Source: an uncultured Bacilli bacterium (GTDB lineage Bacteria; Bacillota_I; Bacilli_A; RF39; UBA660). From it: a DNA stretch of 64,000 nt. The stretch is from NCBI GenBank assembly GCA_947589105.1, contig CANQBL010000004.1, forward strand, positions 898 to 64,897. The letters run 5' to 3'. How positions within the stretch are numbered: the stretch's first letter is position 1; each line of letters starts with the position of its first letter. The position numbers and the translations under genes are program-made. The notes under the pieces were generated by a model. The model worked only from the letters and a program-made list of their open reading frames with translations, did not search any database and had not been told where the DNA came from. Shown here one piece after another: positions 12,170-29,388 of the stretch.

Positions 12170-12442
12170 ATGAATAAAACAAATGATGAAGTTTATATTA
12201 CATTATTAAAAGCAAAAGAAAAAATTGCTGAATATACTAAAAATAAAGTCAAAAATAAAGATTGGCAACCTTATTACAATGGTATTGTAGAAAGTATTGA
12301 CGATATTATCGTCGATTATGCTATTACTACCAAAATGTCAGCCGAAGAAATTAAAGATTGTTTGTTAGAAGTTGGAGCTGATAACAAAGATAGTATTTAT
12401 TATGATACCTACAATTCAATAAAAATGGATTGGGGGTTATAA
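12170..12442 (+). CDS. Hypothetical protein
   Basis: 90-aa ORF behind an AAGGGGG RBS. Confidence 0.6.
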   Translation: MNKTNDEVYITLLKAKEKIAEYTKNKVKNKDWQPYYNGIVESIDDIIVDYAITTKMSAEEIKDCLLEVGADNKDSIYYDTYNSIKMDWGL

Positions 12443-12443
12443 T

Positions 12444-13796
12444 TTGAAAAATAAGAATAAAAAGGAAAAGACTAAAAAAGTTGATAAGTCCATTTTAGAA
12501 TGGTTACCTTTTAAAGAAGTTTGGAACGATCTATTATTTTTGGATAATGATAAAGTTGTAGGCATTATAAAAGTAAATAGTATCAATTTACAACTTTATT
12601 CAAATGATGAACAGACATCTAAAATATTTCAATTTAGAAAAGTATTATTAAGTTTAGAATATCCTTTTAAAATACTAGCACTAGATAAACCTGTTAGTCT
12701 TACGGATCATATAGAAAACTTATTATACTTATCAAAAAATACTGATGATGAGATTAAAAGACAACTTTTAGATCAAGACATTAGTTATGCTGAAATGATT
12801 ATGAATAAGAACATAGTAAATAATCGTGAATTTTATTTACTTATAGATGAAGATAAAGACAATGTTAAATTGTTGAAATCAAAATTAAATGATATTATCT
12901 CTCAACTTTCTAATATAGGTCTAGCTTCAGAACAAGCTAAAACTGATGATATTAAAGAACTATTATTTACTTTCTTAAACCCAAATGAATCACTAGAAAT
13001 TTTTAAACAAGATTCAAGTCTTAAATCATTAAAAGAAAAAATTGCACCTATTGCGATGAAGTTTAATGAAAAAGATATTTTAATGGGCGATTGTTATGCA
13101 ACTAGCATGATAATTGATACTTTCCCCTCTTATGCTAGGGGTAGCTGGTTAGGTATGTTATCTAACATCAAAAATACACGTATGATTATTTCTGTAACAC
13201 CTATGGATAATGTAGAGGTTGCTAAAACATTAAAAAAAGGTATGTCAGAAACTCGAAGTAAGTATATCAATACAAATGATAGGAACGATCAAATTGTTCT
13301 TAAAAATCAATTAGACGACTACGAGAAACTTACTAACAAAATGGATCGTGAAAATGAAAAAATGCTACTGATGTCAGTAGTGTTTTTTACTTATGCTGAA
13401 ACAAGAGAAGAACTACAAAAAAGAGTTAAAGAAATTAAATCTGCATTAAGTAGTTTAAATTTAAGAGGATCACAACTTGTTTTTGAACAAGAACAAGGTC
13501 TTAAAACATCACTTCCTACATTAGATATGCCTTTACAAAATTCTTTTGGTCTTCCTATGCCTACCACGACAGTAGCTGCTTCTTTCCCTTTCGTTTTTGA
13601 ATCTATACAAGATGACGGTAATTCTATTATTTTGGGCGATGACATCAACGGTGGTCTTACAATGTTTGATTTATGGAAAAGAACAAATAAAAGGACAAAC
13701 TCTAATATGTGTATTATAGGTAAAAGTGGTAGTGGTAAATCAACTCTCATAAAGAAGTTAATACGTGGTAACTTTGCTCGTGGGGGTGCTAGATAA
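12444..13796 (+). CDS. VirB4-type conjugation ATPase, N-terminal part including Walker A
   Basis: TcpF/Orf16-like N-domain. GKSGSGKST Walker A lies 20 codons before the stop. Confidence 0.8.
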   Translation: MKNKNKKEKTKKVDKSILEWLPFKEVWNDLLFLDNDKVVGIIKVNSINLQLYSNDEQTSKIFQFRKVLLSLEYPFKILALDKPVSLTDHIENLLYLSKNTDDEIKRQLLDQDISYAEMIMNKNIVNNREFYLLIDEDKDNVKLLKSKLNDIISQLSNIGLASEQAKTDDIKELLFTFLNPNESLEIFKQDSSLKSLKEKIAPIAMKFNEKDILMGDCYATSMIIDTFPSYARGSWLGMLSNIKNTRMIISVTPMDNVEVAKTLKKGMSETRSKYINTNDRNDQIVLKNQLDDYEKLTNKMDRENEKMLLMSVVFFTYAETREELQKRVKEIKSALSSLNLRGSQLVFEQEQGLKTSLPTLDMPLQNSFGLPMPTTTVAASFPFVFESIQDDGNSIILGDDINGGLTMFDLWKRTNKRTNSNMCIIGKSGSGKSTLIKKLIRGNFARGGAR

Positions 13797-14809
13797 TGAC
13801 AAGAATTTTAATCATTGATCCGGAACGTGAGTACAAAGACTTATGTTTATCTTTGGGTGGTAAATGGATCGACGCTGGTGGTGGATCTGGTTGTATTATC
13901 AACCCATTAGAAATTAAAGATTCAACATCTGATGAAGATAATAATACTGCGGTTGTTCGACATCTTCAAACTTTTAGAACATTTATTAAATACTATTTTA
14001 AAGATTTGACAGAACTAGAACTTACAAAGATTGAAGAACTTTTACTTTCTACTTATAAGAAAAAAGGTATTGATTTAGATACTGATATTAGCAAACTTAC
14101 ATCGAAAGATTATCCTATTATAAGTGATTTTCATAATGAAATTGTGGCCGAATTAGAACGTGTTAAAAATGATAAACGTGTTAATGATGACAATGTTAAG
14201 TCATTAGAAAAAATTGAGGCCATTGTTCGTCGTATGGCGACTGGTGTTGATAGTAAATTATGGAATAATCACAGTAATATAGATTTGAATTCTGATTTAA
14301 TTGTATTTGATATTCATAGTTTACTAGAAAGTGATGATACAATTTTAAGAACACAATTTTTTAATATCTTATCTTTATGTTGGCATATCATAAGTCAGAA
14401 TCGCGAGGATCAGAAAATTTTAATTGTAGATGAAGCTCATCTTTTAATTGATCCAGAGAATAAAGACGGTTTAGAGTTTTTGAAAAAAACAAGTAAAAGA
14501 ATAAGAAAATATAACGGTAGTCTTATCGTTTGTACTCAAAATATGATTGACTTTACTTCCCCAGAAGTTGTTAGATACGGTCAAGTAATTGTAGATAATT
14601 CTGATTATCAATTTGTTATGGCACAAGGTAGCGAAGAAATTATTTCATTACAAAAGGTCTTGCGATTAAGTGAAAATGAAAGAAGATTTTTGCAAACCGC
14701 TGGAAAAGGACAAGCTCTATTTGTCATATCGCACGATAAAAGAATTCCTATTTTTGTTCATCTTCGCCCAGAAGAAAAAGAACTTTTTGGTAAAGGTGGT
14801 GGCCGTTAA
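13796..14809 (+). CDS. VirB4-type conjugation ATPase, C-terminal part including Walker B
   Basis: RILIIDPEREY and ILIVDEAHLL (Walker B). The start ATG overlaps the upstream stop as TAATG. Confidence 0.8.
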   Translation: MTRILIIDPEREYKDLCLSLGGKWIDAGGGSGCIINPLEIKDSTSDEDNNTAVVRHLQTFRTFIKYYFKDLTELELTKIEELLLSTYKKKGIDLDTDISKLTSKDYPIISDFHNEIVAELERVKNDKRVNDDNVKSLEKIEAIVRRMATGVDSKLWNNHSNIDLNSDLIVFDIHSLLESDDTILRTQFFNILSLCWHIISQNREDQKILIVDEAHLLIDPENKDGLEFLKKTSKRIRKYNGSLIVCTQNMIDFTSPEVVRYGQVIVDNSDYQFVMAQGSEEIISLQKVLRLSENERRFLQTAGKGQALFVISHDKRIPIFVHLRPEEKELFGKGGGR

Positions 14810-14829
14810 TTAAAAATGCTATTGGCGGT

Positions 14830-15489
14830 ATGATGAAAGCAAAACTCTTAATTGCAATTCTTCCGTTCGCTGGCATAATACTTCTTATTTTGATAATACT
14901 TACAATTATTGCTTCACTATTTGGAAGTGATACAGCTTTTTATCAATCATATTTTGTTTTACCTTTTGATACAAATACTTATACAATTACATCACCTTAC
15001 GGGGAAAGAATAGATCCTATTAACAATGAAAAGTCTTTTCATTCCGGTATTGATGTTGTACCAACAAGTAGTAATATTGTTGCTATTGCTGACGGTACAG
15101 TTGTTGTTAGTGAAGTACAAGAATCAGGGGGCGAAAGTGTAATCATAGAACATAAACTTGGCGGTCAAGTTTATAGATCTGGTTATCATCACATGAAAGA
15201 AAATTCAAGAACGGTTAAAGTTGGCGATGTTGTTAAGCAAGGACAACAAATCGGAATTATGGGTGCTACTGGACGAGTTACTGGTCCACATTTACATTTT
15301 TCATTACAAAAATTTAATGCTAGTAGTCAAAAGTTTGAATACACCGATCCTAGTATTGTTATTAACAATAATATTAGTGCAAAGGAATACAACTTATATG
15401 ATTATGATAACAATAAGCCATTTGATAATGATAAATTACACCCAGAATTGAGAGATCCTTACTACACACCACCAACACTTAAACCTTAA
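14830..15489 (+). CDS. Membrane-anchored M23 family peptidoglycan metallopeptidase
   Basis: N-terminal TM; HSGIDV and GPHLHFS motifs (HxxxD, HxH). Confidence 0.85.
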   Translation: MMKAKLLIAILPFAGIILLILIILTIIASLFGSDTAFYQSYFVLPFDTNTYTITSPYGERIDPINNEKSFHSGIDVVPTSSNIVAIADGTVVVSEVQESGGESVIIEHKLGGQVYRSGYHHMKENSRTVKVGDVVKQGQQIGIMGATGRVTGPHLHFSLQKFNASSQKFEYTDPSIVINNNISAKEYNLYDYDNNKPFDNDKLHPELRDPYYTPPTLKP

Positions 15490-15800
15490 TTTTATAGGCC
15501 TTAATTTAGGCCGAAGATATATTTTATATAAACGACTTTCTAGGGCGAGTTTTTAGAAAAAATAATTTAAAAAAGTGTGTACGATTGTTACACACCCCTT
15601 TATTTATAAAGGTTTTAAAGTAAACGATTGTATAACATTTTAGATAAATGTAAACACTTGTGTTTTTTCTAAACCCTTATGAAATAAGGGAAAACTCGCC
15701 ACTGGCGAGTTGTTTGTAAACAGGATTTATCCTGCTTTAAAAGTGTTGCTAAAATATTAGTTAATTTTATTTTTTTATGGCCGAAGTTTTGGCCTAACAT
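15490..15800 (+). other. Candidate oriT region
   Basis: Non-coding stretch upstream of the RHH/MobC/relaxase genes. It holds hairpins at 15575-15595, 15674-15690, 15694-15710 and 15721-15734. An IncP-type TATCCTG/C motif lies at 15728-15735. GGCCGAAG repeats at 15509 and 15779 flank the region. Confidence 0.45.
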
Positions 15801-15828
15801 TTAATCATTAAAGAAAGGAATTTGTTTT

Positions 15829-15954
15829 ATGAAATTATTTTTAATTATATTGATTGTTAATATTATTTTGTTTTCATTGTTGTTTATTTATTGTGCTTGT
15901 AAAGTCGCAAGTAATGCTGATGAAATTATAGAAAAAATGAATAAAAGAAAATAG
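15829..15954 (+). CDS. Small hydrophobic peptide (41 aa), not in ORF track
   Basis: Own translation gives MKLFLIILIVNIILFSLLFIYCACKVASNADEIIEKMNKRK, preceded by an AAGAAAGGAA RBS. Confidence 0.3.
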   Translation: MKLFLIILIVNIILFSLLFIYCACKVASNADEIIEKMNKRK

Positions 15955-15977
15955 AAAGATTTAAGGGGGTTGTTATA

Positions 15978-16157
15978 ATGAATGATAAAAAAAGTGTCTA
16001 TCTAAAAGTTCAAGTAGATAATAAAACAGAAATAGCTTTTAGAAAAATTTTAGAAATTAAAGGTCTTACTATTCAAGGTGTATTAGAAGAAATGTTAAAA
16101 AATTATATCTTTGAAAACCTTGATTGTATTATAAATAATAATCATGGATCAAAATAA
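15978..16157 (+). CDS. Ribbon-helix-helix protein (59 aa), probable relaxosome accessory factor, not in ORF track
   Basis: Own translation gives MNDKKSVYLKVQVDNKTEIAFRKILEIKGLTIQGVLEEMLKNYIF... behind an AAGGGGG RBS. It overlaps the next gene start. Confidence 0.5.
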   Translation: MNDKKSVYLKVQVDNKTEIAFRKILEIKGLTIQGVLEEMLKNYIFENLDCIINNNHGSK

Positions 16158-16575
16158 AAATGCTAATATAATAGCTTTTAGATTAGATCCACACAAGAAA
16201 AAATTATTACAAGATCAAGCCGATAAAAACAATATGAAAATTAGTGAATATTGTAAAAATGTTTTGTTGGATAATTTAGATCAGACTATGTTACTTGATA
16301 GTCAAAAAAAATTAAGAGAGTTAATTATTGAAACAGTTAAAGACGCAAACGAAAAACAATTTTATAAAATTCTTACTATGATAAATAAAAATAATATTGG
16401 AATAGAAACTATAATTCTTCAAAATGATATGACTTATAAATATTTTGATATTCCTCAAACTAGGGCCGAATTAAATACCCATTTAGTTAATCACCCTATT
16501 ACAGAGGTAGCACGTGAACAGGTACTTAAAAATATTCGTGAATTAAGAAATAAGAAAGATGAATTAGATGAGTAA
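16144..16575 (+). CDS. MobC-like relaxosome accessory protein
   Basis: NIIAFRLDPHKKKLLQDQADKNNMKISEYCKNVLL is an RHH/MobC-type motif. The gene overlaps the relaxase start. Confidence 0.6.
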   Translation: MDQNKNANIIAFRLDPHKKKLLQDQADKNNMKISEYCKNVLLDNLDQTMLLDSQKKLRELIIETVKDANEKQFYKILTMINKNNIGIETIILQNDMTYKYFDIPQTRAELNTHLVNHPITEVAREQVLKNIRELRNKKDELDE

Positions 16576-17998
16576 AAGCAATATTATTGTAAGAGTTAGA
16601 TATAAAAAAGATGTTAATTTTCAAAAGCTAGTTAGTGGTTGGTGTAACTATGTTTCAAAAGACGGTGCTGACGGTAAGTCTTTAAGAGATTTGTCTTCTG
16701 TCAATGATCTTTACGAGAAAGAATTAGGAATATTTGACGACACACAAGAATTTGAAGAACATTATATTTGGTCTAAAAATGGCGATATAGATAAGAAAGA
16801 TATTATTAAAAATTTGCCAAATGATAAGGCCGGTAAAATGTGGAATTTAGTTATTTCCTTTCCCCCAGATTTTGCTGATGAATCTGGACTAAAAACAAAA
16901 CAAGATTATTATATGATGACAAAAGCTATTATTCCGAAATTCATTTTAGATAATGATTTAGATCTTACTAACACAATGTGGTATGCTTCTTTACATAAAG
17001 ATACTGATAACCCACATTTGCATATATCTATTTTTGAAAAAGAACAAACTCGTAAAAAAGATACATTAGAAAAAACATCTGTTAAATATTTAAAAAGTAA
17101 TATAGCTTCTTATTTAATTGATAATACTTCTTTTTATAAAGATCAAGATTATCTTTTATTAGGTTTAGATAACAAAATTAGAAAAAGTAATTTTACTAAA
17201 ATGAATAAAGAATTATTTTTTAGTGATCGTTTTAGAAAAAGTTTGAATAAAGATTTACTTAACTTATATAGTAAACTACCAAAACGTGGCCGTCTTCAAT
17301 ATAATTCTAAAAATTTAGACTATTGTAGAAAAGATATTGATAAGATTATAGAAAAAATTTTATATCATGATACCATTAAATATGATTTTGAGAAATATTA
17401 TCATTCGTTGGAATCAATAGAACGAGAACAAAAAAAGATGTATGGTAATTCAAATAATAATAAATATATAGAAAATAAAATGAAAAGACTATACTCTAAA
17501 ATTGGAAATGATATTTTATATAATTTTAAAGTTTATAATTCAAAAGATTTTTTAGTTAATCAAAAAGAATTTTTAGAAATAAATATTATGAATATGGACT
17601 TTGTTAGTAGAAATATAAAAAAGAAATCTACTATTATTAAACACGCAACAGAATTATATAGATTAGGAAAACTTGCTTCCCTTTCTGAAAGTGATATGAA
17701 AAAATTATTAAGTAAATGGTTAAAGAAATCTAATATAAGTTATGATGTTGATTTACTATATAGTGCTGTTTCTAATTCTCGTGAAGACATAAATGCTACT
17801 GACTTTTATAAAGCTCTTTCTCATCTTGGTTATACAAAAGAAAGATACGATCGTTATAAAAACAAATCATTTTATAAAAATTTAAGATTTAAACAATTTA
17901 TTAAAAAAGCAAATCATTATTTAATGATTGAAAATAAAAAAGAAGAAGAATTTTTACTTGAAATTTTAGAAAAAGAATTACAAGGTAAAGATTTATAA
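16568..17998 (+). CDS. Conjugative relaxase (MOBP/MOBQ-like His-triad)
   Basis: SLHKDTDNPHLHISIF resembles the HxDxDNxHxH motif III of RP4 TraI-type relaxases. Confidence 0.8.
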   Translation: MSKSNIIVRVRYKKDVNFQKLVSGWCNYVSKDGADGKSLRDLSSVNDLYEKELGIFDDTQEFEEHYIWSKNGDIDKKDIIKNLPNDKAGKMWNLVISFPPDFADESGLKTKQDYYMMTKAIIPKFILDNDLDLTNTMWYASLHKDTDNPHLHISIFEKEQTRKKDTLEKTSVKYLKSNIASYLIDNTSFYKDQDYLLLGLDNKIRKSNFTKMNKELFFSDRFRKSLNKDLLNLYSKLPKRGRLQYNSKNLDYCRKDIDKIIEKILYHDTIKYDFEKYYHSLESIEREQKKMYGNSNNNKYIENKMKRLYSKIGNDILYNFKVYNSKDFLVNQKEFLEINIMNMDFVSRNIKKKSTIIKHATELYRLGKLASLSESDMKKLLSKWLKKSNISYDVDLLYSAVSNSREDINATDFYKALSHLGYTKERYDRYKNKSFYKNLRFKQFIKKANHYLMIENKKEEEFLLEILEKELQGKDL

Positions 17999-18011
17999 GG
18001 GGGTTATAACT

Positions 18012-19871
18012 ATAAAGAAATTTTACTATTTTATAGTAGTTATTATTTCTTTATTGTTACTAATTTTTTTCATTCCGAATTTAGTTAATTGTATTCAGAA
18101 TAATTTTGAATTTAATTTTACTTTTAATATTTTGGAATTATCTAGTATGATACTAAAAGATAAAAGTATGATTGTAGGCATTTCTACTTTGGAATGTCTT
18201 TTTATTTTACTTTTAATATATTATAGATATAACTTTAAAATAAGAAATACCAACTCTAATAATGGTATTCCTAAACGTGTTAATAGTAATGAATTTGGTA
18301 GTAGTGATTTTGCTACTATGAAAGAAATTAGAGATACTTTTACTACTTGGCATTTTGGAAAAGAAAACAAATCAGGTGGTATGGTCGTAGCAATAGAAAA
18401 TAATAAATACTATGTTGATACAAGTTCTAATCATACTTTGATTGTTGGAAATACTGGATCAGGAAAAACGGTTTCTGTAATAGATCCTTTGATTTTCAAT
18501 TTAGCCGATAGTGGCGAATCGATGATTGTAAATGATGTTAAGGGGGAATTATTTAAAACCTCTTATGATTATTTAAAAAAGAAAAATTATGATGTTAAAA
18601 TTATCAATTTAAGAGATACATCTAATAGTGATTTTTGGAATCCATTATCTATTGCTTATCAGTATTATAAAGAGAAAAATTTTGAAAAAGAAATTGAAAC
18701 AGTAAACGATTTATCAAATGCTATATGTGATGATGTAACAAGTCGTGATAAATATTGGCAAGAATCGTCTTCATCAGTATTAAGTGCTTTATGTTTAGCT
18801 TTAATTGAAGACGCAAAAAGTGAAAGTCAAATACACTTTCATTCTATTTACAATTTACTTGTTGAACATGGTGCAAAAAAATATGGCGATCAGAATTCAT
18901 TAGATAAATATTTTTCAGATCGTCCATTTGGAAGTGTTGCAAAAAATTTATATTCTACTGGTAACTTTGCACGTGGCGAAACAAGAGCTACCATATTTTC
19001 TATTTTAGCGGCAAAATTAAGAGTTTTTGGAGATACTGGTGTAAGTTATATAACAAGTAAGACTTCATTCAATATAAGGGATATTGGTAAGAAAAAAACT
19101 GCGATCTTCTTAATTGTTCCAGATGAAAAGTTATCTCGTCATTTTATTGGTGGTTTATTTGTTAATCAAATTTATCAAGTTTTAGTTGAAGAAGCTCAAA
19201 AATATAAAGACGGATCACTTCCTATAAGAGTTAATTTTATATGTGAGGAATTATGTAATACCATAAAAATAAGTGAGTTATCAAAAAAGTTAACGGTTGC
19301 AAGATCTAGGAATATCAGATTCTATATGGTTATTCAAGATTTTAATCAATTACAAGAAACTTATAAAGAATCGGCTGGTACAATAAAAGCAAATTGTAGT
19401 AACTGGGTTTATTTACTTACGAATGATTATAATACTGCACGTGAGATTTCTAATCGACTAGGTCGTTATACCATAGCTACTACCAGAACATCATCATCTA
19501 ATCGATATGGAAAAGCTGATTTTAATTTGTCATCTGATACATCACTAACTGGTAGAGATTTAAAAACTACTGATGAGCTTATCAATTTCAAAGTTGGCGA
19601 GGCAATTATTTTAAGGGCTAGAATGTCGCCTATTAAAAGTGTTTTAAAACAAATAAAAGATTATCCTATAAAATATAAAGTAATTGATAATATAGAGATT
19701 AAACAAGAGGAATTTCATTCATTAGAATTGTTTGATTTAGACACTTTTAGAATAGAAAAAGAATTGTTTTCTAATCAAGAAGAAATAAAAGCTAAACCTA
19801 CTAAAAAAGCAAGTCCAACAAAGAGAAGAAAAAAAGATGTCGATCAACAATCAGACAATCAATCTATTTAA
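18012..19871 (+). CDS. Type IV coupling protein (VirD4/TraG family)
   Basis: GNTGSGKT Walker A, IFLIVPDE Walker B, two N-terminal TM helices. The start is set at ATA 18012, 8 nt after AAGGGGG. The track start, TTG 18054, would truncate TM1. Confidence 0.85.
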   Translation: MKKFYYFIVVIISLLLLIFFIPNLVNCIQNNFEFNFTFNILELSSMILKDKSMIVGISTLECLFILLLIYYRYNFKIRNTNSNNGIPKRVNSNEFGSSDFATMKEIRDTFTTWHFGKENKSGGMVVAIENNKYYVDTSSNHTLIVGNTGSGKTVSVIDPLIFNLADSGESMIVNDVKGELFKTSYDYLKKKNYDVKIINLRDTSNSDFWNPLSIAYQYYKEKNFEKEIETVNDLSNAICDDVTSRDKYWQESSSSVLSALCLALIEDAKSESQIHFHSIYNLLVEHGAKKYGDQNSLDKYFSDRPFGSVAKNLYSTGNFARGETRATIFSILAAKLRVFGDTGVSYITSKTSFNIRDIGKKKTAIFLIVPDEKLSRHFIGGLFVNQIYQVLVEEAQKYKDGSLPIRVNFICEELCNTIKISELSKKLTVARSRNIRFYMVIQDFNQLQETYKESAGTIKANCSNWVYLLTNDYNTAREISNRLGRYTIATTRTSSSNRYGKADFNLSSDTSLTGRDLKTTDELINFKVGEAIILRARMSPIKSVLKQIKDYPIKYKVIDNIEIKQEEFHSLELFDLDTFRIEKELFSNQEEIKAKPTKKASPTKRRKKDVDQQSDNQSI

Positions 19872-20973
19872 CTTTACTTATCCTTTTATCAAGTTGGATA
19901 ATAGTAATGTAAAAGTTGGTACTTTCTTTTCTGGAATTGGTAGTCCCGAAATGGCATTTAAAAGATTAAAAGATAATGGAATTATAAAGAATTATGAATC
20001 TGTATTTTTTTGTGAAGTAGATAAATTTGCTATACAAAGTTTTTGTGCTATTCATAACAAAACACCAAATGATAATGTTGGGGATATAACTAAAATAAAT
20101 GGTAAAGATTTACCTTATTGTGATATTTGGATCGGTGGTTTTCCTTGTCAAGATATAAGTATGGCTGGAATTCGTAGAGGTTTTGACTTTAATAGTAATA
20201 CAAGATCATCATTAGGTTGGAAGATGATCCAATTTCTACGTGAGATTGAAGATCCACCAAAGGTTGTAATTTTTGAAAATGTTGCTGCTATTACACAAAA
20301 AAAGTTTAGAAGAACATTAAACTTATTTAGAAAAGATTTAGAGGATCTTGGATATAGTTTGTATGAAAATGTTTTGTGTGCATTAGATTATGGTACACCC
20401 CAGAATCGAGAAAGATATTTTTTAGTAGCTGTCAAAGGTAAATATTTATATCAATTTCCACCTAAACAAAAATTAAAATTAAGGTTAAAAGATTTATTAG
20501 AAAAAGATATTGATCCTAATTTAATTTTATCTGAACAAGTACCTTTTGATTTAGAAAGTTTTGTAAAGAATAAAAGTTTCGATAAAAATAGTAAGTTAAT
20601 ATGTAAAAATTTAAAAGATAAAAGGAAAAAATATATTATAGATTTATATAGGTTTATAGACGGTAAGAATCATTGTGGACGTGATACATCTAGTAAATAT
20701 AATCAAACTGCTAGATTATGGTCTATGAATGGATATTGTCCTACCTTAACCGCTAACTCTACCGAAGATACAAGCAAAATGATTATTTATAAAAATAATT
20801 GTTTTTTTGTAAAAAAAATTAGTCCACTTGAAAGTTGGCGTTTTATGGGTTTTTCAGATGAAGATTTTTACAAAGCAAAAAATAGTGGTATTTCTAATCG
20901 ACAATTATTTAAACAAGCTGGTAATAGTATTGCAACAAATGTCATTTATTACATTCTTAAAAATCTATTTTAA
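19837..20973 (+). CDS. DNA (cytosine-5)-methyltransferase
   Basis: Motifs FFSGIGSPEMAF (I), GGFPCQDIS (IV), FENV (VI), QNRERYFLV (VIII), GNSI (X). Confidence 0.9.
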   Translation: MSINNQTINLFNFTYPFIKLDNSNVKVGTFFSGIGSPEMAFKRLKDNGIIKNYESVFFCEVDKFAIQSFCAIHNKTPNDNVGDITKINGKDLPYCDIWIGGFPCQDISMAGIRRGFDFNSNTRSSLGWKMIQFLREIEDPPKVVIFENVAAITQKKFRRTLNLFRKDLEDLGYSLYENVLCALDYGTPQNRERYFLVAVKGKYLYQFPPKQKLKLRLKDLLEKDIDPNLILSEQVPFDLESFVKNKSFDKNSKLICKNLKDKRKKYIIDLYRFIDGKNHCGRDTSSKYNQTARLWSMNGYCPTLTANSTEDTSKMIIYKNNCFFVKKISPLESWRFMGFSDEDFYKAKNSGISNRQLFKQAGNSIATNVIYYILKNLF

Positions 20974-20986
20974 AGTTAAATTATTT

Positions 20987-21013
20987 AAAACTTACTAACT
21001 TTATGATATAATG
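20987..21013 (+). promoter_or_regulatory. Promoter box copy B (AAAACTTACTAACTTTATGATATAATG)
   Basis: Near-identical to the boxes at 370-394 (minus strand) and 22652-22677. It has an extended -10 and lies 36 nt upstream of the nuclease gene. Confidence 0.5.
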
Positions 21014-21048
21014 TTCTTGGGGTAATAAAACACTTGTGGTAGTATGAA

Positions 21049-21567
21049 ATGAAAAATAAATATTTAGTTACTATTGACGAGCCCAGAATACAAGAAACTT
21101 GCGACGCTTATTTCAAGTGGAAAGACTTAAATACCTATGTTAAAAGTTTAGTTTCTAGGGGAATCAATATGCCTGACGCAATTAGCGAACCTATGGGCTG
21201 TTATTGTTTAGATCTTTTATGGAATAAAAGTTCTGGTGGGGACGCACAATCAAAAGACGGAAAGAAAATTGAGTTCAAGGCTACAAGTAATTATGAATAT
21301 GATTTAAGTAGTTTTGGACCAGAATGTGAATTTGATGATTTAGTTTTTTTAAGATTTAATCTTGAAACAAATATGTTATATGTATATGATACAGGTGTTA
21401 ATTCTGATGAGTTTAAACAAATTAGAATTTCACAATCTGGTACAGTAGCAGATTATCAAAAAGTAGGAAAAAGACCTCATCTTAGTATCATTAAGTCAAT
21501 TATTGAAGTAAAACATTTAGAGCCAACAGTTGTTTTCAATATTCGTAGAGGTCAAATCGAACAATAG
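21049..21567 (+). CDS. Small type II restriction endonuclease candidate (PD-ExK)
   Basis: 172 aa, sandwiched between two C5-methyltransferases. GGDAQSKDGKKIEFKAT fits a D...ExK catalytic motif. Confidence 0.55.
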   Translation: MKNKYLVTIDEPRIQETCDAYFKWKDLNTYVKSLVSRGINMPDAISEPMGCYCLDLLWNKSSGGDAQSKDGKKIEFKATSNYEYDLSSFGPECEFDDLVFLRFNLETNMLYVYDTGVNSDEFKQIRISQSGTVADYQKVGKRPHLSIIKSIIEVKHLEPTVVFNIRRGQIEQ

Positions 21568-21648
21568 GATATGAAAGGAAAGAGTGTTTATTACTCTTTA
21601 AAAAGTATCCTATTATTGCGGCACGCCGCAGCGAAAGGAAGTGTTATC

Positions 21649-22614
21649 ATGTATAAAATATGTAGTTTATTTGCTGGTGTTGGTGGTATAGATTTGGGGT
21701 TTATAAATACAAAGAAATGTGAAATTGTTTATGCAAATGAGTTTGATAAATATGCTGTTGAAACATACGAATTAAATTTTAAAAACAAAGTTGATTGTAG
21801 AGATATACACGAAGTTAAAGTTGAAGAAATACCAGATTTTGATATTATGGTTGGTGGCTTTCCTTGTACCTCTTTCTCTGTTGCTGGTTATCGTAAAGGT
21901 TTTAATGATGATCGTACAGGCGATTTATTCTTTGAAATGGAAAAAATATTTAAAGTTAAAAAGCCACGTGTTATTTTTTTAGAGAATGTTAAAAATTTAG
22001 TTGGACATGATAAAGGTAAAACCTTTATGACAGTAATTGATCGATTAGAAAAAGCTGGTTATAAGAATAAAATTAGTTATCAAGTTTTAAATGCTTGTGA
22101 ATATGGTAATATTCCACAGAATCGAGAAAGAATATATATTGTTGCTTTTAGAGATAAAAAAGATTACGACAAATTTCGTATGCCTATGCCTATAACTTTA
22201 ACTACAAGTATTAAAAAAATATTTGATTTTAAAAACAAAGTTGATGAAAAATATTATTATACTTCTGGAAAATATAAAGGCGATATTTATGATTTATTAA
22301 AAGAAAGTATGGACGATGACAATACAGTTTATCAATGGCGTAGAAAATATGTCAGAAAGAATCAAAGCAATCTTGTTCCTACTCTTACTGCTAATATGGG
22401 CGAAGGCGGACATAATGTTCCACTTATAAAAACTGAATATGGAATACGTAAACTTATGCCTATTGAATGTTTTTATGCTCAAGGTTTTCCAAAAAATTAT
22501 AAATTACCTAAAAATATGAGCGACGCTAGACTTTATAAACAAGCTGGTAATAGTGTTGTTGTACCAGTTATTGAAAGAATTGCAATTAACATTGTAAATG
22601 CACTTGATAACTAG
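21649..22614 (+). CDS. DNA (cytosine-5)-methyltransferase
   Basis: Motifs LFAGVGGIDLGF (I), GGFPCTSFSVAG (IV, Thr in place of the usual Gln), LENV, QNRERIYIV, GNSVVVPV. ATG 21649 follows an AAAGGAAG RBS; the track start at 21571 is unlikely. Confidence 0.9.
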   Translation: MYKICSLFAGVGGIDLGFINTKKCEIVYANEFDKYAVETYELNFKNKVDCRDIHEVKVEEIPDFDIMVGGFPCTSFSVAGYRKGFNDDRTGDLFFEMEKIFKVKKPRVIFLENVKNLVGHDKGKTFMTVIDRLEKAGYKNKISYQVLNACEYGNIPQNRERIYIVAFRDKKDYDKFRMPMPITLTTSIKKIFDFKNKVDEKYYYTSGKYKGDIYDLLKESMDDDNTVYQWRRKYVRKNQSNLVPTLTANMGEGGHNVPLIKTEYGIRKLMPIECFYAQGFPKNYKLPKNMSDARLYKQAGNSVVVPVIERIAINIVNALDN

Positions 22615-22651
22615 GTATGTTTTATCTTATAAGTTTTGTTTAATTATATAT

Positions 22652-22677
22652 AAAACTTACTAACTTTGTGATATAAT
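22652..22677 (+). promoter_or_regulatory. Promoter box copy C (AAAACTTACTAACTTTGTGATATAAT)
   Basis: Third copy of the box, upstream of the 22781 ORF. Confidence 0.5.
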
Positions 22678-22780
22678 TAACTTAATTAGAAACATTGTAA
22701 TTCCGCCATTGACTTTTATATTGCTTTAATGTAATATAAACTCTACCTCGTTCAAAGATGTATATTTAGGAGCTGTAAAT

Positions 22781-23299
22781 ATGAAGTTAGAAAATTATAA
22801 AGAATTGAAAGCTACTGTTTGCGAGATGAATAAAACAAATGATGAAATTGCTTTAATTGAATGGAATCATGATGACGGTCCAAAATTTAAAAATGTTCAG
22901 GAAATGAAAGAATTTTACGATCGCTTAAAAAATAATGAGTTAGATTATTTATTTTCAGATGATCCTAATAATGTTCCAGATACAAAAGATCTTATAATTG
23001 AAAGTTTTGAGTACACATTAGAAGATTTATTTTTTTATATTTACACCTTTCAAAATACATCTACTAATAAGTATGTTACTTATATGAGTATTAAAAATTT
23101 AAAAGAAAATGAAACACTACATAATTTATGTGGTAATGCTGCAACTGATATTGAAACTGCTCATACTTACTTTGAAAGTTTAAAAGTATCTATTACATCA
23201 AATACTATTGATGATATTTTACAAAATTTACTTGTTAGTGCTAAAAATACATTAAAAAAATTAAAAGAAAAATTAAATAAATTGACTAGCGAAAGCTAG
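22781..23299 (+). CDS. Hypothetical protein (ICE cargo)
   Basis: 172-aa ORF with an AGGAG RBS and no recognisable motif. Confidence 0.6.
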   Translation: MKLENYKELKATVCEMNKTNDEIALIEWNHDDGPKFKNVQEMKEFYDRLKNNELDYLFSDDPNNVPDTKDLIIESFEYTLEDLFFYIYTFQNTSTNKYVTYMSIKNLKENETLHNLCGNAATDIETAHTYFESLKVSITSNTIDDILQNLLVSAKNTLKKLKEKLNKLTSES

Positions 23300-23307
23300 T
23301 TTTTTTT
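23285..23307 (+). terminator. Rho-independent terminator
   Basis: ACTAGC-GAAA-GCTAGT stem followed by T7. It overlaps the stop codon. Confidence 0.7.
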
Positions 23308-23332
23308 ATGTCTTAATAAAGGGGGTTATATT

Positions 23333-24313
23333 ATAGATATAAATAAACTATTAAATGATTTTAAAAATTATTCTAAAAATAATGAATTTGATAAAATTAA
23401 AGACCTAACATATAACTTTGAAAAGTATATATTAGATGATTGTAAAAATGATGTTGAATTTAAAAATTTAATTGATGATCTAACTTTATATAGTGATTAT
23501 ACTTTGATAAATACTTTGTTAGTTAAAATTCAATATCCTAACTTTTTGTCTTTGGGTACAAAAAAGTCATTTAATGATAAAGGTTATAACTTAATTGACG
23601 GTGCTATCCCGATAAAAATACTATCGCCTATAAATGATGAATTTGTATCTATAAAAAAAGATAATAAAGAACAAATAAAAAATACAAATGATTTAACAAA
23701 AGAAGAATTAGAAAGATATAAAAATAAAGATTCAGATATTACCTTTCATCATAAAGAGTTTAAAGGTTTAAATACTACTACTTTATATGATGTCAAAGAT
23801 ACTGATATGAATAAAATAGATTATGATCGTGGGCCATTACCGGCTCTTTTTTATTCTTCTTATGATGAGATATATGATAGTTTTGTAAAAGCACTATACT
23901 CTGACGGTTATAAAGTTAAATACGAAGTAATGGACGATAAATTTCGTTTAGATAAAGACAATAAAATTATTAGTTTAAAAAAAGGGCTTAATAAACAAAT
24001 ACATTTACTTTCTATACTAGATGTTTATACTGATGATATTTCTTCTAATCAAATGGAAAAGGATCTACTTAATATGGTTATATGTAGAAGAATTGGAATT
24101 GATAAAGAAGATATTTCATTTAATGAATTTACTGATTGGTACAAAAAACAAGATATGTCTAATGTAGATCACCTTTTAAAACTAATTGTGAATAAAGGTC
24201 GTAAATTTGCTAATAATTTTAATAAATTTTATGATATGGAAATATCAAAGAATGAAACTCTTTATCCAGATGAAAATATGGGCTTGTATGATGATGTCTC
24301 TCTATTTTTATAA
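23333..24313 (+). CDS. ArdC-N-like ssDNA-binding/antirestriction-type protein (probable ATA start)
   Basis: LYSDYTLINTLLVKIQYPNF...GYNLIDGAIPIKILSPI resembles the ArdC-N YSxxNxxLIxxQxP...G.x.I.IL.P pattern. The ORF is open from 23318 with no ATG/GTG/TTG before 23504. ATA 23333 lies 7 nt after AAGGGGG. Confidence 0.5.
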   Translation: MDINKLLNDFKNYSKNNEFDKIKDLTYNFEKYILDDCKNDVEFKNLIDDLTLYSDYTLINTLLVKIQYPNFLSLGTKKSFNDKGYNLIDGAIPIKILSPINDEFVSIKKDNKEQIKNTNDLTKEELERYKNKDSDITFHHKEFKGLNTTTLYDVKDTDMNKIDYDRGPLPALFYSSYDEIYDSFVKALYSDGYKVKYEVMDDKFRLDKDNKIISLKKGLNKQIHLLSILDVYTDDISSNQMEKDLLNMVICRRIGIDKEDISFNEFTDWYKKQDMSNVDHLLKLIVNKGRKFANNFNKFYDMEISKNETLYPDENMGLYDDVSLFL

Positions 24314-24319
24314 TTTTTA

Positions 24320-24351
24320 GCGCTGACAACTTTTTTCAAGCGCGTTATAAT
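24320..24351 (+). promoter_or_regulatory. GCGC-box promoter copy 2 (cTGACA-17-TATAAT)
   Basis: AGCGCTGACAACTTTTTTCAAGCGCGTTATAAT is a near-consensus sigma-A promoter, with GCGC motifs 20 bp apart. Confidence 0.55.
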
Positions 24352-24374
24352 TCGTTTGTAAGGTGGTGCTATAA

Positions 24375-24656
24375 ATGGAAAATAATGCTTATGAGATTGG
24401 ATATAGTCGTCAAAAAACAAAAAAGTTATCTTACTTTTATTCTGATTTGTTATCTGAGCTTTTACTATTAAGATACGAATTTGGTTTTAAAGATGTATCT
24501 AAAAAAGATGTTTTAAGTGAATTGCCTAGTTTAAGAGAATTTACTAATAAAGAAGTTGAAAAGATCTACAATAATGCTATTGAGTTATTAAAAATTAAAA
24601 GTAATATTATTACCATAAATGATAATCCATTTAGTTTTAAAAAAGTTTCTGATTAA
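24375..24656 (+). CDS. Hypothetical protein
   Basis: 93-aa ORF with an AAGGTGG RBS. Confidence 0.6.
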   Translation: MENNAYEIGYSRQKTKKLSYFYSDLLSELLLLRYEFGFKDVSKKDVLSELPSLREFTNKEVEKIYNNAIELLKIKSNIITINDNPFSFKKVSD

Positions 24657-24660
24657 AGTT

Positions 24661-24705
24661 AAGAATAGATAAATATTTTGTTTGTCTATTCTTTTCTTTT
24701 TTTTA
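24661..24705 (+). terminator. Rho-independent terminator
   Basis: AAGAATAGA...TCTATTCTT 9-bp stem followed by a T-rich run. Confidence 0.65.
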
Positions 24706-24746
24706 TGGCATAAAATTTAAAAAAGAGATTTAAGGGGGTTGAAAAA

Positions 24747-24893
24747 ATGAAAAAGATAACTTATAAAATTATAAACGAATTTAATACTAATGAAAATAAT
24801 ACGAAAGAAGATTTAAAGTTGATTTTTAATAAGAAACTTTTAAAAGTAATACTTTCCAAAGAAAAAAATATATATGGGCGCTGTAATTCTTAA
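24747..24893 (+). CDS. Small ORF (48 aa), not in ORF track
   Basis: An AAGGGGG RBS lies 8 nt before the ATG; the ORF begins MKKITYKIINEFNTNENNTKEDLK.... Its 3' end contains GCGC-box promoter copy 3. Confidence 0.3.
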   Translation: MKKITYKIINEFNTNENNTKEDLKLIFNKKLLKVILSKEKNIYGRCNS

Positions 24894-24909
24894 TAAAGCG
24901 CGTTATAAT
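24878..24909 (+). promoter_or_regulatory. GCGC-box promoter copy 3, upstream of the serine recombinase
   Basis: GCGCTGTAATTCTTAATAAAGCGCGTTATAAT has the same architecture and 20-bp GCGC spacing as copies 1 and 2. Confidence 0.5.
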
Positions 24910-24962
24910 TTAATTATGTTATCAATAAGTTTCGTTAAATCAGTAAAGGAGCTAGATTTAAT

Positions 24963-27050
24963 ATGAAGAAAATTATTGAAACAGTAGATATTATTATAAG
25001 GAGAGTGGTACTTTATTTAAGATTATCAAAAGAAGATCTTGATAAACCTACAAAAGAAGCTATAAGCGAAAGTATTAAGAATCAAGAGCTCATGCTTCGT
25101 GATGAAGTTGCCAAACACCCTGATTGGGAAATTGTAGGCGTTTATTGTGATGAAGATTTTTCTGGTGCTGGAACTTATCGCCCTGACTTTGAAAAAATGA
25201 TAAAAGCATGTGAAAATGGCGATGTAGATATTGTATTATGTAAAAGTCAATCAAGGTTTTCAAGAGATATGGAAGTTGTAGAAAAATATCTTCATAACAA
25301 ATTTGTTGAATGGGGTGTTCGTTTTGTTAGTTTAGTTGATAATGCTGATACTGCAAATAAAGGAAATAAAAAAGCTAGACAAATAAATGCCCTAGTTAAT
25401 GAATGGTTTTTGGAAGATTTATCAGACAACATCAAAGCAACATTTCGTACAAAATGGCAAAATGGCGAATGTACTGCGTCTTTTGCAAAATATGGGTTAA
25501 TGAAAGATCCAAAGAATAAGAATCATTTACTTATCGATCCTGTTGCTAGTGAAGTTTTAAAACAAATTGGTAATATGGTACTAGCTGGATATGGGCAAGA
25601 CAAAATTGCCTCTCAATTAGAAAATAAAAAAATACCTAGTCCGTATGAATATAAAGCTATGAATGGTTGTAAATTAAAACTTCCTATATCGAAAAAGGAA
25701 GATAAGACTTCAATTTTAAAAGCTGGTAGTTATATTGTTAGAATTTCTTTATACAATCAATATAAACAAATATTAAGAAATATTAAGTCTCTTTTTGTAT
25801 TTGGTACTGATGAATTAAAAAAGTATGATTCAAAGTTTCATATTAGAGTTAGATCCATAAGTGAAGATTTAAAACTTTACTATACTACACAATATTTTTA
25901 TGACATAGATAATTTTGACTTAAATAATCTTGACTTACAAAATAATGAAATATGGAAACCTTTAAAAGTAAATGATACAATTCCCGATGATATTTGTTAT
26001 CTAGCAAGTAATAATGAAGAATTAGACAGATTGATCGAAACAGGTTTTGAATTAGAAGTTACTCTTGATGAAAATCGTTCACATAACATTTATAAACTAT
26101 TTACTAGATCTATTGCTAGTGATACTGATACACCTTTTTCATTTGAATATGAAATTAGAAAAAAATACAAATGGAGCGGTCGAGTTGTTTATAATATGTT
26201 ACGTGATGAAGTCTATAACGGAACTTTAATACAAGGAAAAACTAGAAGAATAAGCTATAAGAATCACAAATGTATCAAAGCGAAAAAAGAACATTGGGTA
26301 GAAAGTGAAAGTGCTCTTGAAAAAATATTTGATGATGAAACTTGGCTTGCTATTCAACAAAAGTTAAATGAAAATGGTCGTTCAGGATCAGACGGTGTAA
26401 AACATATATTTTGTGGTAAAGTCTATTGTGATGTTTGCGGAAGTATCTTACATAAAAATTCAAGTAAAAATTCAAAACAAGAAAAAACAGAATATTTAAT
26501 ATGTAAAGATAAACAAAATCATTGGGCAAATTGTGATAACAATAAATCAATCAAATTAGAAGATTTGAAAAAATATGTTTTAGAATCAATAAATTCCCTT
26601 TTAGATGAGTATTACGATGAAAACACTTTAAAAGAATTACATAAAGAAATTGTTGACAAAGATTTATTTAAAGATCAAACCGATAGTCTTAATAAAGAAA
26701 AAACTGATATTCAGTCTCTCATAAAAAAGAAAAAAACAATATTTCAACAATTATATGATGATAAAGCGACAGGGATAATTGATGAAAGTGATTTCACTTC
26801 ATTAAGATTAAAGTATAAAGAAGATGTAGATAAACTTAACGAAAGATTATCTACAATAAATGATGAATTAAAACTTATCGAAATAAAACAAAAGAAATTA
26901 AAAGATAAGGATCATTTATTTTCAAATTATCGTCATATAGAAGAATTAACACCAGAGTTACTTGATGAATTTGTAGATCAAATTAAAGTTGGAAAATTAG
27001 AGAATGGATCTCAAAGAGATATTAGAATTGTTTGGAATTTTCAAACTTAA
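24963..27050 (+). CDS. Large serine recombinase (ICE integrase/excisionase)
   Basis: [11 protein letters not shown] resolvase catalytic-Ser motif, recombinase domain, CDVCGS...C..C zinc ribbon, long C-terminal coiled coil. Confidence 0.9.
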
Positions 27051-28243
27051 AAATATATTGTGTGGATAAGGTAATCGGAGCAACTGGGCCTACGGGACCT
27101 ACTGGTCCACAAGGTGTTCCTGGTATAGGAGTTACGATAAAAGGTGCATATGATTCTTTAGATGATTTAGAAAATGTTTATCCAGTTGGAAATCCTGATG
27201 ATGCTTATGTTATAGGTGACGATTTATATATATGGTCTGATAATGAAGATTCTTGGATAGATATTGGAACAATAAGAGGTCCAAAAGGAGAAACTGGATT
27301 ACAAGGCATTCAAGGGCCTCAAGGCCCTCAAGGAGTTCCCGGACCACAAGGGCCTCAAGGAGTACCTGGTGATCAAGGTATTCAAGGACCTGTTGGACCT
27401 CAAGGTCCAAAAGGGGAAACTGGTTCAATTGGCGCAACAGGTCCAGCTGGAACTAGTGTTACTATATTGGGTTCTTACGATGATATTGGAGAATTGGAAA
27501 AAGACCATCAAAAAGGCAACCCAGGAGATTCTTATTTAGTTGGTAATGATTTATATGTTTGGTCTAATGAAGATAGCACGTGGAAAAATGTTGGAACAAT
27601 AAGGGGACCTCAAGGTGTTGCTGGGCCTCAGGGACCAGAAGGACCTCAAGGAGTTCCTGGACCTGTTGGGCCTCAAGGAGAGCGAGGCATTCAAGGACCA
27701 GTTGGACCTCAAGGAGTACCAGGTCCACAAGGACCTCAAGGAATTCCTGGTCCACAAGGGGAATATGATCTTAAAGCAGTTTATATAACAACCTATAATA
27801 ACAACATTCCAACAGGTTATACAATAGCATCAAACAACAGATTACCACTTTCAGCAAAAACATATGATAATGGTAATTTATGCTCTTTAGATTCTACAGA
27901 AAATACCATAACCTTTAACCAAGAAGGTGTATATAAAATAGATTTTGTAGTAAATACGTACCACTCAAATACAAATAGTTTAGCAACTATGGCAGCTGTT
28001 GGGTTTAAAAAAATAAATGAGCCAATAGTGTATGCTGGAGGAAGTTTATGGTATGGACAAAGTGTTTCTTCTCCTATTGTTGGTCAAGGTTTATTTGTAA
28101 TAGGAAAAGCTGGAGAAAAAATGGAATTTGTGAATTTGTCAAAAACTAATTTAACACTAAATACCCCTTTGATAGATGATATATTATCAGATTCATATTT
28201 AGTTAATCCTTTAATAACAATTACTATTTTATATTTAGGTTAA
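27032..28243 (+). CDS. Collagen-like (GXY repeat) BclA-type surface/exosporium protein; 5' end uncertain
   Basis: Three GXY tracts ([10 protein letters not shown]... and similar) are separated by two homologous ~49-aa modules, followed by a ~160-aa C-terminal globular domain. The gene is locally GC-rich. No RBS precedes the possible starts (TTG 27032, GTG 27062). Confidence 0.85.
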
Positions 28244-28293: not shown

Positions 28294-29388
28294 ATGAAAA
28301 AAAATAAAGTATGTGTTTATGCAATAAGTAAAAATGAGGAAAAATTTGCTAAACGTTGGTATGAATCAATGAAAGAAGCAGATGAAGTATACGTTTTAGA
28401 TACAGGCTCTACTGATAATACCGTTAATATTTTAAAAAATCTTGGAGCTAAAGTAACCATAAAAGAAATCAATCCCTGGCGTTTTGATGTTGCTAGAAAT
28501 GAGTCTTTATCTTTAGTACCAAAAGATTGTGACATTTGTGTATGTACGGATTTAGATGAAATATTTAATAAAGGGTGGCGAAAAAAATTAGAATCGTTAT
28601 GGAAAAATGGAGTTAATCATATAAGATACAATTATAATTGGAGTCACGATGAAAACGGAAAACCACTAATTAATTTTTATATAGAAAAAATACATTCTAG
28701 AAACGATTTCAAATGGATTCATCCGGTTCATGAAGTTCTAGAATTTAGTGGAGAAAAGCAAATATGGGAAACTACAAATGAAATAACATTAGATCATTTT
28801 CCTGATGATACTAAATCAAGAAGTAGTTACTTACCTCTTTTAGAATTATCTGTAAAAGAAAAACCAAATAACGATAGAAACATGCATTACTTAGGAAGAG
28901 AATACATGTTTTATGGCAGGTGGAATGAAGCTATTGATACATTAATAAAACATCTTTCTTTAAAAAGTGCTACTTGGAAAGATGAAAGATGTGCCTCTAT
29001 GAGGTTCATATCAAGATGTTATAAAAATCTTAAAAGATATGATGAGGCAAAAATGTGGCTTGATAAAGCTATAAACGAAGCTCCTTATTTAAGAGATCCA
29101 TATATGGAAAGAGCGATTCTTGAATATGAATTAAATAATTATAAGGAAGTTAAAAAATACTGTCTTAAAGCTTTAGAAATTAAAAGCCACGCAAAAACCT
29201 ATATAAATGAACCTTTTAGTTGGAATTACACAGTATACGACCTTCTATCAATAAGTTGCTTTTATTTAGATGAACTTAATGAAGCTATTACGTGGTGTAA
29301 TAAAGCCATAGAAATGGAACCTAATAACGAAAGATTATTAAACAATAAGAAAATAATTGAGCAAAAAAGAAAATCTGTTAATAAATAG
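28294..29388 (+). CDS. Family-2 glycosyltransferase fused to TPR repeats
   Basis: VCVYAISKNEEKF...VLDTGSTDNT...CTDLDE (GT-A/DxD), with C-terminal TPR-like HYLGREYMFYGRWNEAI repeats. Confidence 0.75.
   Translation: MKKNKVCVYAISKNEEKFAKRWYESMKEADEVYVLDTGSTDNTVNILKNLGAKVTIKEINPWRFDVARNESLSLVPKDCDICVCTDLDEIFNKGWRKKLESLWKNGVNHIRYNYNWSHDENGKPLINFYIEKIHSRNDFKWIHPVHEVLEFSGEKQIWETTNEITLDHFPDDTKSRSSYLPLLELSVKEKPNNDRNMHYLGREYMFYGRWNEAIDTLIKHLSLKSATWKDERCASMRFISRCYKNLKRYDEAKMWLDKAINEAPYLRDPYMERAILEYELNNYKEVKKYCLKALEIKSHAKTYINEPFSWNYTVYDLLSISCFYLDELNEAITWCNKAIEMEPNNERLLNNKKIIEQKRKSVNK

Follow-up and report, generated by a model that had tools for sequence, protein, structure and literature searches.

We find that a 64,000-nucleotide (nt) stretch of DNA (hereafter the window; C4:898-64897, that is, positions 898 to 64897 of contig C4) from genome G000, an uncultured Bacilli bacterium whose source material was a rabbit-gut metagenome and whose assembly comprises 1.03 Mb in 30 contigs at 26% G+C, carries an integrative conjugative element (ICE) that is very probably integrated in, and disrupts, a BclA-type collagen gene at a site composed of the codons of its first Gly-Pro-Thr (GPT) repeats. 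The ICE fills the window up to its right end (1..27084, plus strand), and the 3′ part of the collagen gene follows directly (27085..28243, plus strand). A preliminary description of the window had taken the element to be conjugative and to end inside or against the 5′ end of the collagen-like gene. Both points stand. Pfam finds a type IV secretion system (T4SS) ATPase, a coupling protein and a relaxase together with an integrase, a gene set that therefore marks the element as an ICE, and the boundary lies at the dinucleotide AC at 27083-27084, orthologues of the collagen gene starting 33-40 codons earlier.

The junction itself reads as the preliminary description had given it. The large serine recombinase gene at the right end of the ICE (24963..27050, plus strand; 695 amino acids [aa]) stops at a TAA codon (27048-27050); a second frame, that of the collagen gene, stays open from TTG 27032 through 28243 (403 codons), with GTG 27062 in frame, and its first GXY triplet lies at 27077 (GGA GCA ACT, 27077-27085). 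Between the recombinase stop and that triplet the sequence, aaaatatattgtgtggataaggtaatc, contains no ATG and no Shine-Dalgarno-like purine run. At the boundary, the element-derived arm of the right attachment site attR (P arm, TTGTGTGGATAAGGTAATCGGAGCA, 27058-27082, plus strand), which is conserved in sister ICEs and has an imperfect inverted copy in complete relatives, is followed by the crossover dinucleotide AC (27083-27084, plus strand), which forms the center of the attP dyad in complete relatives, and then by TGGGCCTACGGGACC; the host-derived arm (B′ arm, 27085-27105, plus strand) is TGGGCCTACGGGACCTACTGG and consists of GPT codons. In the window GPT is preceded by the residues VDKVIGA, whose codons belong to the end of the element, and the same 25 nt of element end precede unrelated flanks in other genomes. 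Assembled contigs and unitigs of public faecal metagenome runs point to the same position: unitigs of runs X7, X8 and X12 terminate exactly at 27084, and those of other samples stop or diverge there or no more than about 20 nt away. In X5, X10, X13 and the metagenome-assembled genome (MAG) G041, a recombinase end that is 97.7-100% identical to that of the window is joined to four other collagen-type flanks, one of them encoding GPTGPNGPE; recent insertions have therefore placed this ICE in five or more different collagen genes. Because the succession of recombinase stop, about 30 nt and collagen repeats recurs in most of 80 related loci, a chance arrangement is excluded.

Comparison with uninterrupted alleles shows what the collagen gene has lost. 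The syntenic locus of G015, a congeneric species, runs without interruption through pgm, a membrane-protein gene, collagen gene 1, collagen gene 2, a GT2-TPR glycosyltransferase gene (81% identity to that of the window) and mnmA, and no recombinase of the ICE's family was found in this genome. Collagen gene 2, which shares 78-92% identity with the open reading frame (ORF) of the window over two aligned pieces, begins aaaggggtgaaaaaATG and places a ribosome binding site (RBS), an ATG and 33 N-terminal codons, MSSNNYEGNIVNNAICEIKKQKHCCYRFLSGIE, ahead of the GPT repeats. At the protein level, the orthologues P0003-P0005 (74-87% identity, 421-426 aa) likewise have an ATG start and a Cys-containing N-terminal domain of 33-40 residues. 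A 646-nt unitig of run X7 is an element-free allele of a very close strain: 108 nt ending TGCTGTTGTTTTAGATACATTAATGGTTCA (CCCFRYINGS) continue directly into the gene of the window, from which it differs at 8 of 520 nt (~98.5% identity) and by two extra GPT units. ICE-free alleles thus start earlier than the reading frame of the window, and none was seen in which the gene begins at the same place with a promoter of its own. The start and the 33-40 codons that all orthologues and the ICE-free allele possess are missing from the window, so the gene is interrupted there, truncated by the ICE and lacking its promoter, RBS, ATG and about 33-40 N-terminal codons.

The choice of target is a property of the recombinase family. 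The recombinase of the window matches PF00239, PF07508, PF13408 and PF14287 (Resolvase, Recombinase, Zn_ribbon_recom and DUF4368), and an alignment of three family members, in which the YLRLS motif of the catalytic region is invariant, retrieved 80 loci from "uncultured Bacilli" MAGs of rabbit, mouse, chicken and human gut. Ten of these contigs end at the junction and two lack a stop codon; among the 68 readable right junctions, at least 55 lie in GXY-coding (collagen-repeat) DNA, 4 in an ABC ATPase at its PTGALD motif, where the same CCAACNGG occurs, and ~8 elsewhere. The host-arm consensus over 32 AC-core junctions is AC-WGGNCCWACWGGNSC, and since GGNCCA-AC-TGGNCC is a dyad, the GPT repeat constitutes a natural serine-recombinase site. 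In 15 complete elements of 2.9-10 kb an inverted copy of the P arm (P′ arm) stands at the opposite end, and in-silico excision at the central AC/GT with joining of the flanks yields an in-frame collagen ORF in 13 of them. Insertions lie in either orientation, in a first, an internal or a last repeat, and orientation tracks the core: elements lying opposite to the gene carry GT in place of AC. The polarity rule known for serine recombinases predicts just this for oppositely oriented inserts, and the agreement provides an internal check on the crossover position. A sister ICE of 27.3 kb in genome G042, with a recombinase 81% identical to that of the window, has both ends on one contig and a GT core; its in-silico excision restores an ORF of ~183 aa across MTGGNKMFNHCENSLLEHPRGPRCSNCFVQGPTGA/TGPSGLPGPS... 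(the slash marking the joint). A literature search returned no report of elements in collagen or bclA genes, and the family, which is large and uses GPT-repeat DNA as its landing site, is apparently undescribed. Within the family, a subgroup with the P arm AAACAA(T/A)GCACCA (loci L082, L088, L090 and L105, and probably L077, L086 and L092) sits in an ABC-transporter ATPase gene, at PT(G/S)ALD codons that share the CCAACNGG core with the GPT repeats.

A second conserved gene accompanies the recombinase. In the window it encodes a 48-aa protein, MKKITYKIINEFNTNENNTKEDLKLIFNKKLLKVILSKEKNIYGRCNS, behind a strong RBS (24747..24893, plus strand), and homologues of 48-58 aa are found at the same position, from a 37-nt overlap with the recombinase gene to 109 nt upstream of it, in 75 of 80 testable loci, including 2.9-kb elements. 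Minimal elements of 2.9-4 kb carry no transfer genes and keep both the recombinase and the small ORF intact. No Pfam or PHROG family matched the 48-aa protein above noise; its position suggests that it is likely a recombination directionality factor (RDF) or regulator. At loci L066, L067, L068, L071, L072 and L075 and on contig C9 of the window's genome, the presumed promoter of the small ORF is separated from its RBS by a terminator-like hairpin (AGAACTA...TAGTTCTTTTTT), and this conserved hairpin could be an attenuator of the small ORF and the recombinase gene.

The target is best read as a BclA-type spore-surface collagen protein, a reading that the preliminary description had reached from the collagen repeats and the neighboring glycosyltransferase gene and that is supported by predicted structure, gene neighborhood, a promoter element and the sporulation genes of the host. 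The protein encoded in the window consists of a GXY collagen region (PF01391) followed by a C1q/TNF-like C-terminal domain, for which an AlphaFold model built on 32 homologues reaches pLDDT >90 over residues 239-391. The top PDB matches of this model in Foldseek are the F-BclA tip fibrillum (9h38) and BclA (3tyj, 2z5w and 1wck), with TMt 0.74-0.82; EDA, C1q and TNF rank behind them, and the sequence profile of the target also matches 1wck. Downstream lies the gene for the GT2-TPR glycosyltransferase (28294..29388, plus strand; 364 aa; Pfam Glycos_transf_2 and TPR; syntenic in G015), whose GT-A plus TPR architecture resembles that of SgtA, the 358-aa glycosyltransferase of BclA3, which has a GT-A domain and four TPRs (PMC7157674). 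The collagen-like plus glycosyltransferase pairing noted earlier is thereby supported. When the upstream regions of collagen genes were scanned (in L003-L015, in L041-L112 and on C2 and C9 of G000), CATAnnnTA was present 8-12 nt before the RBS at 28 of 39 gene starts (72%), against 57 of 1294 control ORFs (4.4%), and the box also precedes the G015 orthologue. In B. subtilis CATAnnnTA is the sigma-K -10 consensus. The -10 box alone is conserved, a conserved -35 "AC" not being seen before the collagen genes, and by this pattern the collagen targets appear to be late mother-cell genes. Two further features of these genes may be recorded here. Three genes of the locus share AACAAACATAATAAG further upstream of CATAnnnTA, and the collagen region is interrupted twice, at 27131-27277 and 27458-27604, by a 49-aa module that is conserved in orthologues and is modeled as a small beta/alpha unit (pLDDT 89-96; model residues 25-70 and 134-179).

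By gene content, the host would be a spore former. Its genome gives profile matches to Spo0A_C (139 bits), SASP (76 bits), SpoIVA (366 bits) and spore_sigmaK (298.7 bits). Each of the 19 searched genomes of the genus encodes SpoIVA, as do 46 of 50 genomes that host the recombinase family. These counts fit the published prediction that the orders RF39, RFN20 and ML615J-28 include some species that sporulate and others that do not (PMC10868615). In several relatives spoIVA is itself split. In G008 (L124, C5:21000-38000) a 13.7-kb insert interrupts it near residue 120-129, with a 530-aa serine recombinase gene directly before the 3′ piece; the same position is split on single contigs of G053 (C23) and G078 (C6), in G058, G062 and G073 each half is on a contig of its own, and for G001 the 3′ half alone was found. 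If these hosts form spores, a recurrent element of this kind in spoIVA would need to excise.

We propose, with good support, that the recombinase at the right end of the ICE made the insertion by site-specific recombination between a dyad-symmetric attP (..GGTAATCGGAGCA-AC-..) and an attB consisting of Gly-Pro-Thr codons (GGN CCN AC/N GGN CC), with a core of the form GGNCCNAC-NGGNCC, the GPT codons being near-palindromic around AC. Such an insertion would part the promoter, RBS, ATG and ~33-40 N-terminal codons, as the left flank, from 27085-28243, so that the gene would not be expressed as long as the ICE is in place. Precise excision would then rebuild the gene and free a circular ICE for transfer, and would probably require the 48-aa protein encoded just upstream of the recombinase. 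The predicted rebuilt attB reads ...AATGGTTCA-(GGNCCNAC)-TGGGCCTACGGG and the predicted attP GGTAATCGGAGCA-AC-P′ arm, with a left-end P′ arm expected to resemble TGSTCCGATKACMTTATCCACA. As to timing, we tentatively prefer, at somewhat less than an even chance, that this ICE excises in the sporulating mother cell, beside its excision for conjugation; the preliminary description had raised excision during sporulation by analogy. By analogy with skin, SPbeta and gin (PMC4191935, PMC5595907, PMC5025042), this timing would accord with the class of the target gene, the retention of the two-gene module by minimal, non-transmissible elements, the intactness of the gene halves and the spoIVA cases.

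Two explanations would do away with the disruption altogether. The collagen ORF might be complete, starting at GTG 27062 or TTG 27032 and transcribed by read-through from the recombinase gene, with the ICE merely abutting it. The frame is indeed open from 27032 and offers these two alternative start codons, but neither is preceded by an RBS, and the residues before GATGPT come from the att arm, which is conserved in sister ICEs with unrelated flanks. Both codons belong to this arm of the element and were therefore rejected as the true start; the Cys-rich N-terminal domain of all orthologues and of the ICE-free allele would also be lacking from such a protein. We regard this explanation as very improbable, and still more so an assembly artefact in which the recombinase gene and the collagen gene were misjoined through a short GPT repeat. 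Collagen repeats do break assemblies, as seen in the 10 of 80 related contigs that end at the junction and in the repeat left unresolved at the left end of C4, but an independent Logan assembly of run X1 spans 26500-27900 on a single 11.7-kb contig with zero differences, runs X2-X4 of the same sample contain 95-100% of the sampled 31-mer words of the junction, and the exact att anatomy of the family is present.

A more serious rival, to which we give a nearly even chance, accepts the insertion into the collagen gene and denies it a developmental role. On this account GPT-coding DNA, being dyad-symmetric, conserved and present in several dispensable genes of each genome and in all hosts of the clade, is a safe harbour for the ICE, which keeps the gene off, excises at low frequency for transfer and leaves the function to paralogues. 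In its favor, most genomes of the genus give 2-7 tblastn matches to the collagen query and an intact collagen paralogue is found on C2 of the window's own genome; one ICE occupies at least five different collagen genes, and insertions vary in orientation and repeat position. The repeat, occurring in several genes per genome, would make a good landing site with or without a role in sporulation. Against it speak the intact recombinase and small ORF of the 2.9-4-kb elements that lack transfer genes, and the finding that in 13 of 15 cases the two sides of the interrupted gene have stayed in frame. The targets, moreover, appear to be late mother-cell genes, the essential spoIVA is split in relatives, and the described serine-recombinase elements in sporulation genes (SPbeta, gin, skin and vfbin) excise during sporulation (PMC4191935, PMC5595907).

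Several observations weigh against our explanation. No consistent mother-cell promoter was found before the 48-aa or recombinase gene: of 18 distinct regions upstream of the 48-aa gene, 6 contain CATAnnnT, too weak a signal, and the recombinase gene stands behind a sigma-A-like box common to other ICE genes. The assembled contigs of the source sample show the integrated form only. A sister ICE of 31.8 kb in G043 sits in a non-collagen, Gly-rich gene. No left att site turned up in the assembly: when the P arm's reverse complement was sought by regex and by fuzzy matching, with as many as 7 mismatches allowed, attR was the only match. Nor was a matching 5′ fragment of the gene found there by tblastn with the N-termini of the paralogue and of G015 or with 30 nt of the X7 allele. 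The last 236 nt at the left end of contig C4 are a repeat whose depth is 40-60x, compared with ~8x for the ICE. With this repeat at the contig end and the left junction missing from the assembly, it is therefore possible that the left end has been deleted or rearranged and that the ICE is locked in.

The ICE continues beyond the left edge of the window, since an ICE-specific promoter box, shared with two internal ICE genes, occurs inverted at 367-411, where it drives a leftward membrane-protein gene (323..3). Homology to the sister ICEs of G042 and G043 begins at ~383 of the window, and the ICE measures 27.7 kb or more. MAG G041, despite its 100% identical recombinase, does not contain the left part. 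Extension of C4 to the left with the source runs led to an 8x unitig that stops at C4:207. The terminal repeat itself (G000:C4:1-236, locus L122, 897 to 662 nt left of the window) is GC-rich, and on its minus strand another serine recombinase starts (MRKNEKITALYERLSRDD...); it is either a widespread element beside or inside the ICE or a chimeric join via a shared 30-mer. The off-type insertion of the G043 ICE (L117 and L040, G043:C2) lies near the 3′ end of a gene of >500 aa, at ...GNSSGTGAGG/VGGVRPCFYID. The 5′ collagen fragment on contig C9, considered as the missing 5′ piece of the ICE-interrupted gene, was rejected: it belongs to the neighboring gene, and its last 30 nt differ from the X7 allele.

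Elements that interrupt sporulation genes and excise from them have been described, and the proposed element resembles them in part. The skin element of B. subtilis sigK (SpoIVCA) and skinCd of Clostridioides difficile (CD1231 with the RDF CD1234) likewise have a large serine recombinase near one end; they split a mother-cell gene, which is rebuilt by precise excision under the control of a small directionality factor (PMC5025042). Unlike the ICE, which is conjugative and occupies a repeat-encoded site present in many genes, here in a putative structural spore-surface gene, skin is a defective prophage at a unique site in a regulatory gene. SPbeta (SprA/SprB) in B. subtilis spsM resembles the proposed ICE as an active mobile element in a gene for spore-surface maturation; it excises in order to spread and also, in the mother cell, to rebuild the gene, and its RDF gene has its own mother-cell promoter (PMC4191935, PMC5499854). 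SPbeta, however, is a phage with a unique attB, whereas the element described here is an ICE whose candidate partner protein was found to have no consistent sporulation promoter. The gin element in gerE of Bacillus cereus ATCC 10987 (GirC with GirX) is likewise not a phage; 28.6 kb long, it combines a serine recombinase with a small accessory factor (PMC5595907). It has three recombinases and no conjugation genes, in contrast to the single recombinase, T4SS/relaxase set and repeat target of the ICE. Among conjugative or mobilisable elements, Tn5397 (TndX) and Tn4451/Tn4453 (TnpX) of clostridia use large serine recombinases at short GA-centered sites in loose context and are not known to target collagen-repeat coding DNA.

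The target protein can be compared in the same way with BclA of B. anthracis, F-BclA at the tip of the endospore appendage of B. thuringiensis and BclA3 of C. difficile, with which it shares a Cys-containing N-terminus (in orthologues), a GPT-rich collagen region and a C1q/TNF-like trimer domain. The adjacent GT-A plus TPR glycosyltransferase is common to the BclA3-SgtA pair and the locus in the window (PMC7157674). In contrast to the BclA types, its C-terminal identity to which is only 16-18%, the protein of the window, a predicted spore-surface protein, has a collagen region that is broken twice by the globular 49-aa module.

Sporulation-excised gene-intervening elements are known at a handful of unique sites, in sigK, spsM, spoVFB, spoVR, gerE and yabG. 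The family described here differs in that its landing site is protein-repeat DNA, a codon-derived near-palindrome present in many genes and in every host of the clade; in that its elements range in size from minimal cassettes to a full ICE; and in that its hosts are uncultured gut Bacilli with ~1.1-Mb genomes that retain core sporulation genes. Should excision prove to be linked to sporulation, the ICE would to our knowledge be the first conjugative element under mother-cell control, and it would provide a means of varying the fibres of the spore surface, which in other species mediate adherence and host entry. More tentative still than the timing proposed for this ICE is a wider possibility: that a family of elements, from 2.9-kb cassettes to ICEs of at least 27 kb, has specialized on the GPT-codon dyad in BclA-like genes, that the recombinase and its partner of 48-58 aa excise these elements in the mother cell and so rebuild spore-surface genes, and that a conjugative element has thus come under developmental control, with the set of spore fibres determined by which elements excise. 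Since the site recurs both inside a gene and from gene to gene, the same enzymes could shuffle N- and C-terminal modules among these genes. The recombinases also represent a ready supply of large serine integrases whose attB is simple and predictable and whose polarity follows AC versus GT, which makes them of interest for genome engineering.

A second element of the family occurs in the same locus. On contig C9 (C9:1-5800, locus L123), beside the genes for the membrane protein and pgm that border the G015 locus, stands a 5′ collagen fragment that has an RBS and an ATG. A 5.5-kb element comes next. It encodes an ABC-F ATPase, a radical-SAM enzyme and a 58-aa ORF as well as a recombinase of 685 aa that is 45% identical to that of the ICE; downstream of the element stands GPTGPTGATPTLTIGEVTTGEPDT, and then the contig ends. 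The attL of this element is GGACCAAC/CTGTCGATTTTAT and its attR is AACAATCGAGCAAC/AGGTCC, and joining of the flanks is in frame as checked up to the contig end. Taken with the ICE, this element means that both tandem collagen genes of the locus are interrupted. The 5′ fragment has the N-terminal domain of the collagen gene 2 type of G015, and the C-terminal part to which excision would join it is of the collagen gene 1 type; this mixed type hints at an exchange of modules at the GPT repeats.

Upstream of the recombinase and the small ORF, Pfam assigns to the genes of the ICE a thioester/SpaA adhesin, a sortase, a TrbL-like protein, TraC/VirB4-like and TraG-like ATPase pieces, a MobL relaxase, a T4SS coupling protein and C5 methylases. 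The adhesin (917 aa, thioester and SpaA domains) and the sortase occupy 5185..8536 (TED, SpaA and Sortase), and the T4SS core, a TrbL/VirB6-like protein and a VirB4/TraC-type ATPase, lies at 10305..14809 (TrbL_4, TraC_F_IV, P-loop_TraG and AAA_10). They are followed by the MobL-type relaxase at 16568-17998 (MobL) and the VirD4-type coupling protein at 18054-19871 (T4SS-DNA_transf and TraG-D_C), and all these genes are on the plus strand. The VirB4/TraC-type ATPase is encoded by two abutting ORFs (12444-13796, 450 aa; 13796-14809, 337 aa), by a frameshift or a real split, and the transfer competence of the ICE is therefore uncertain.

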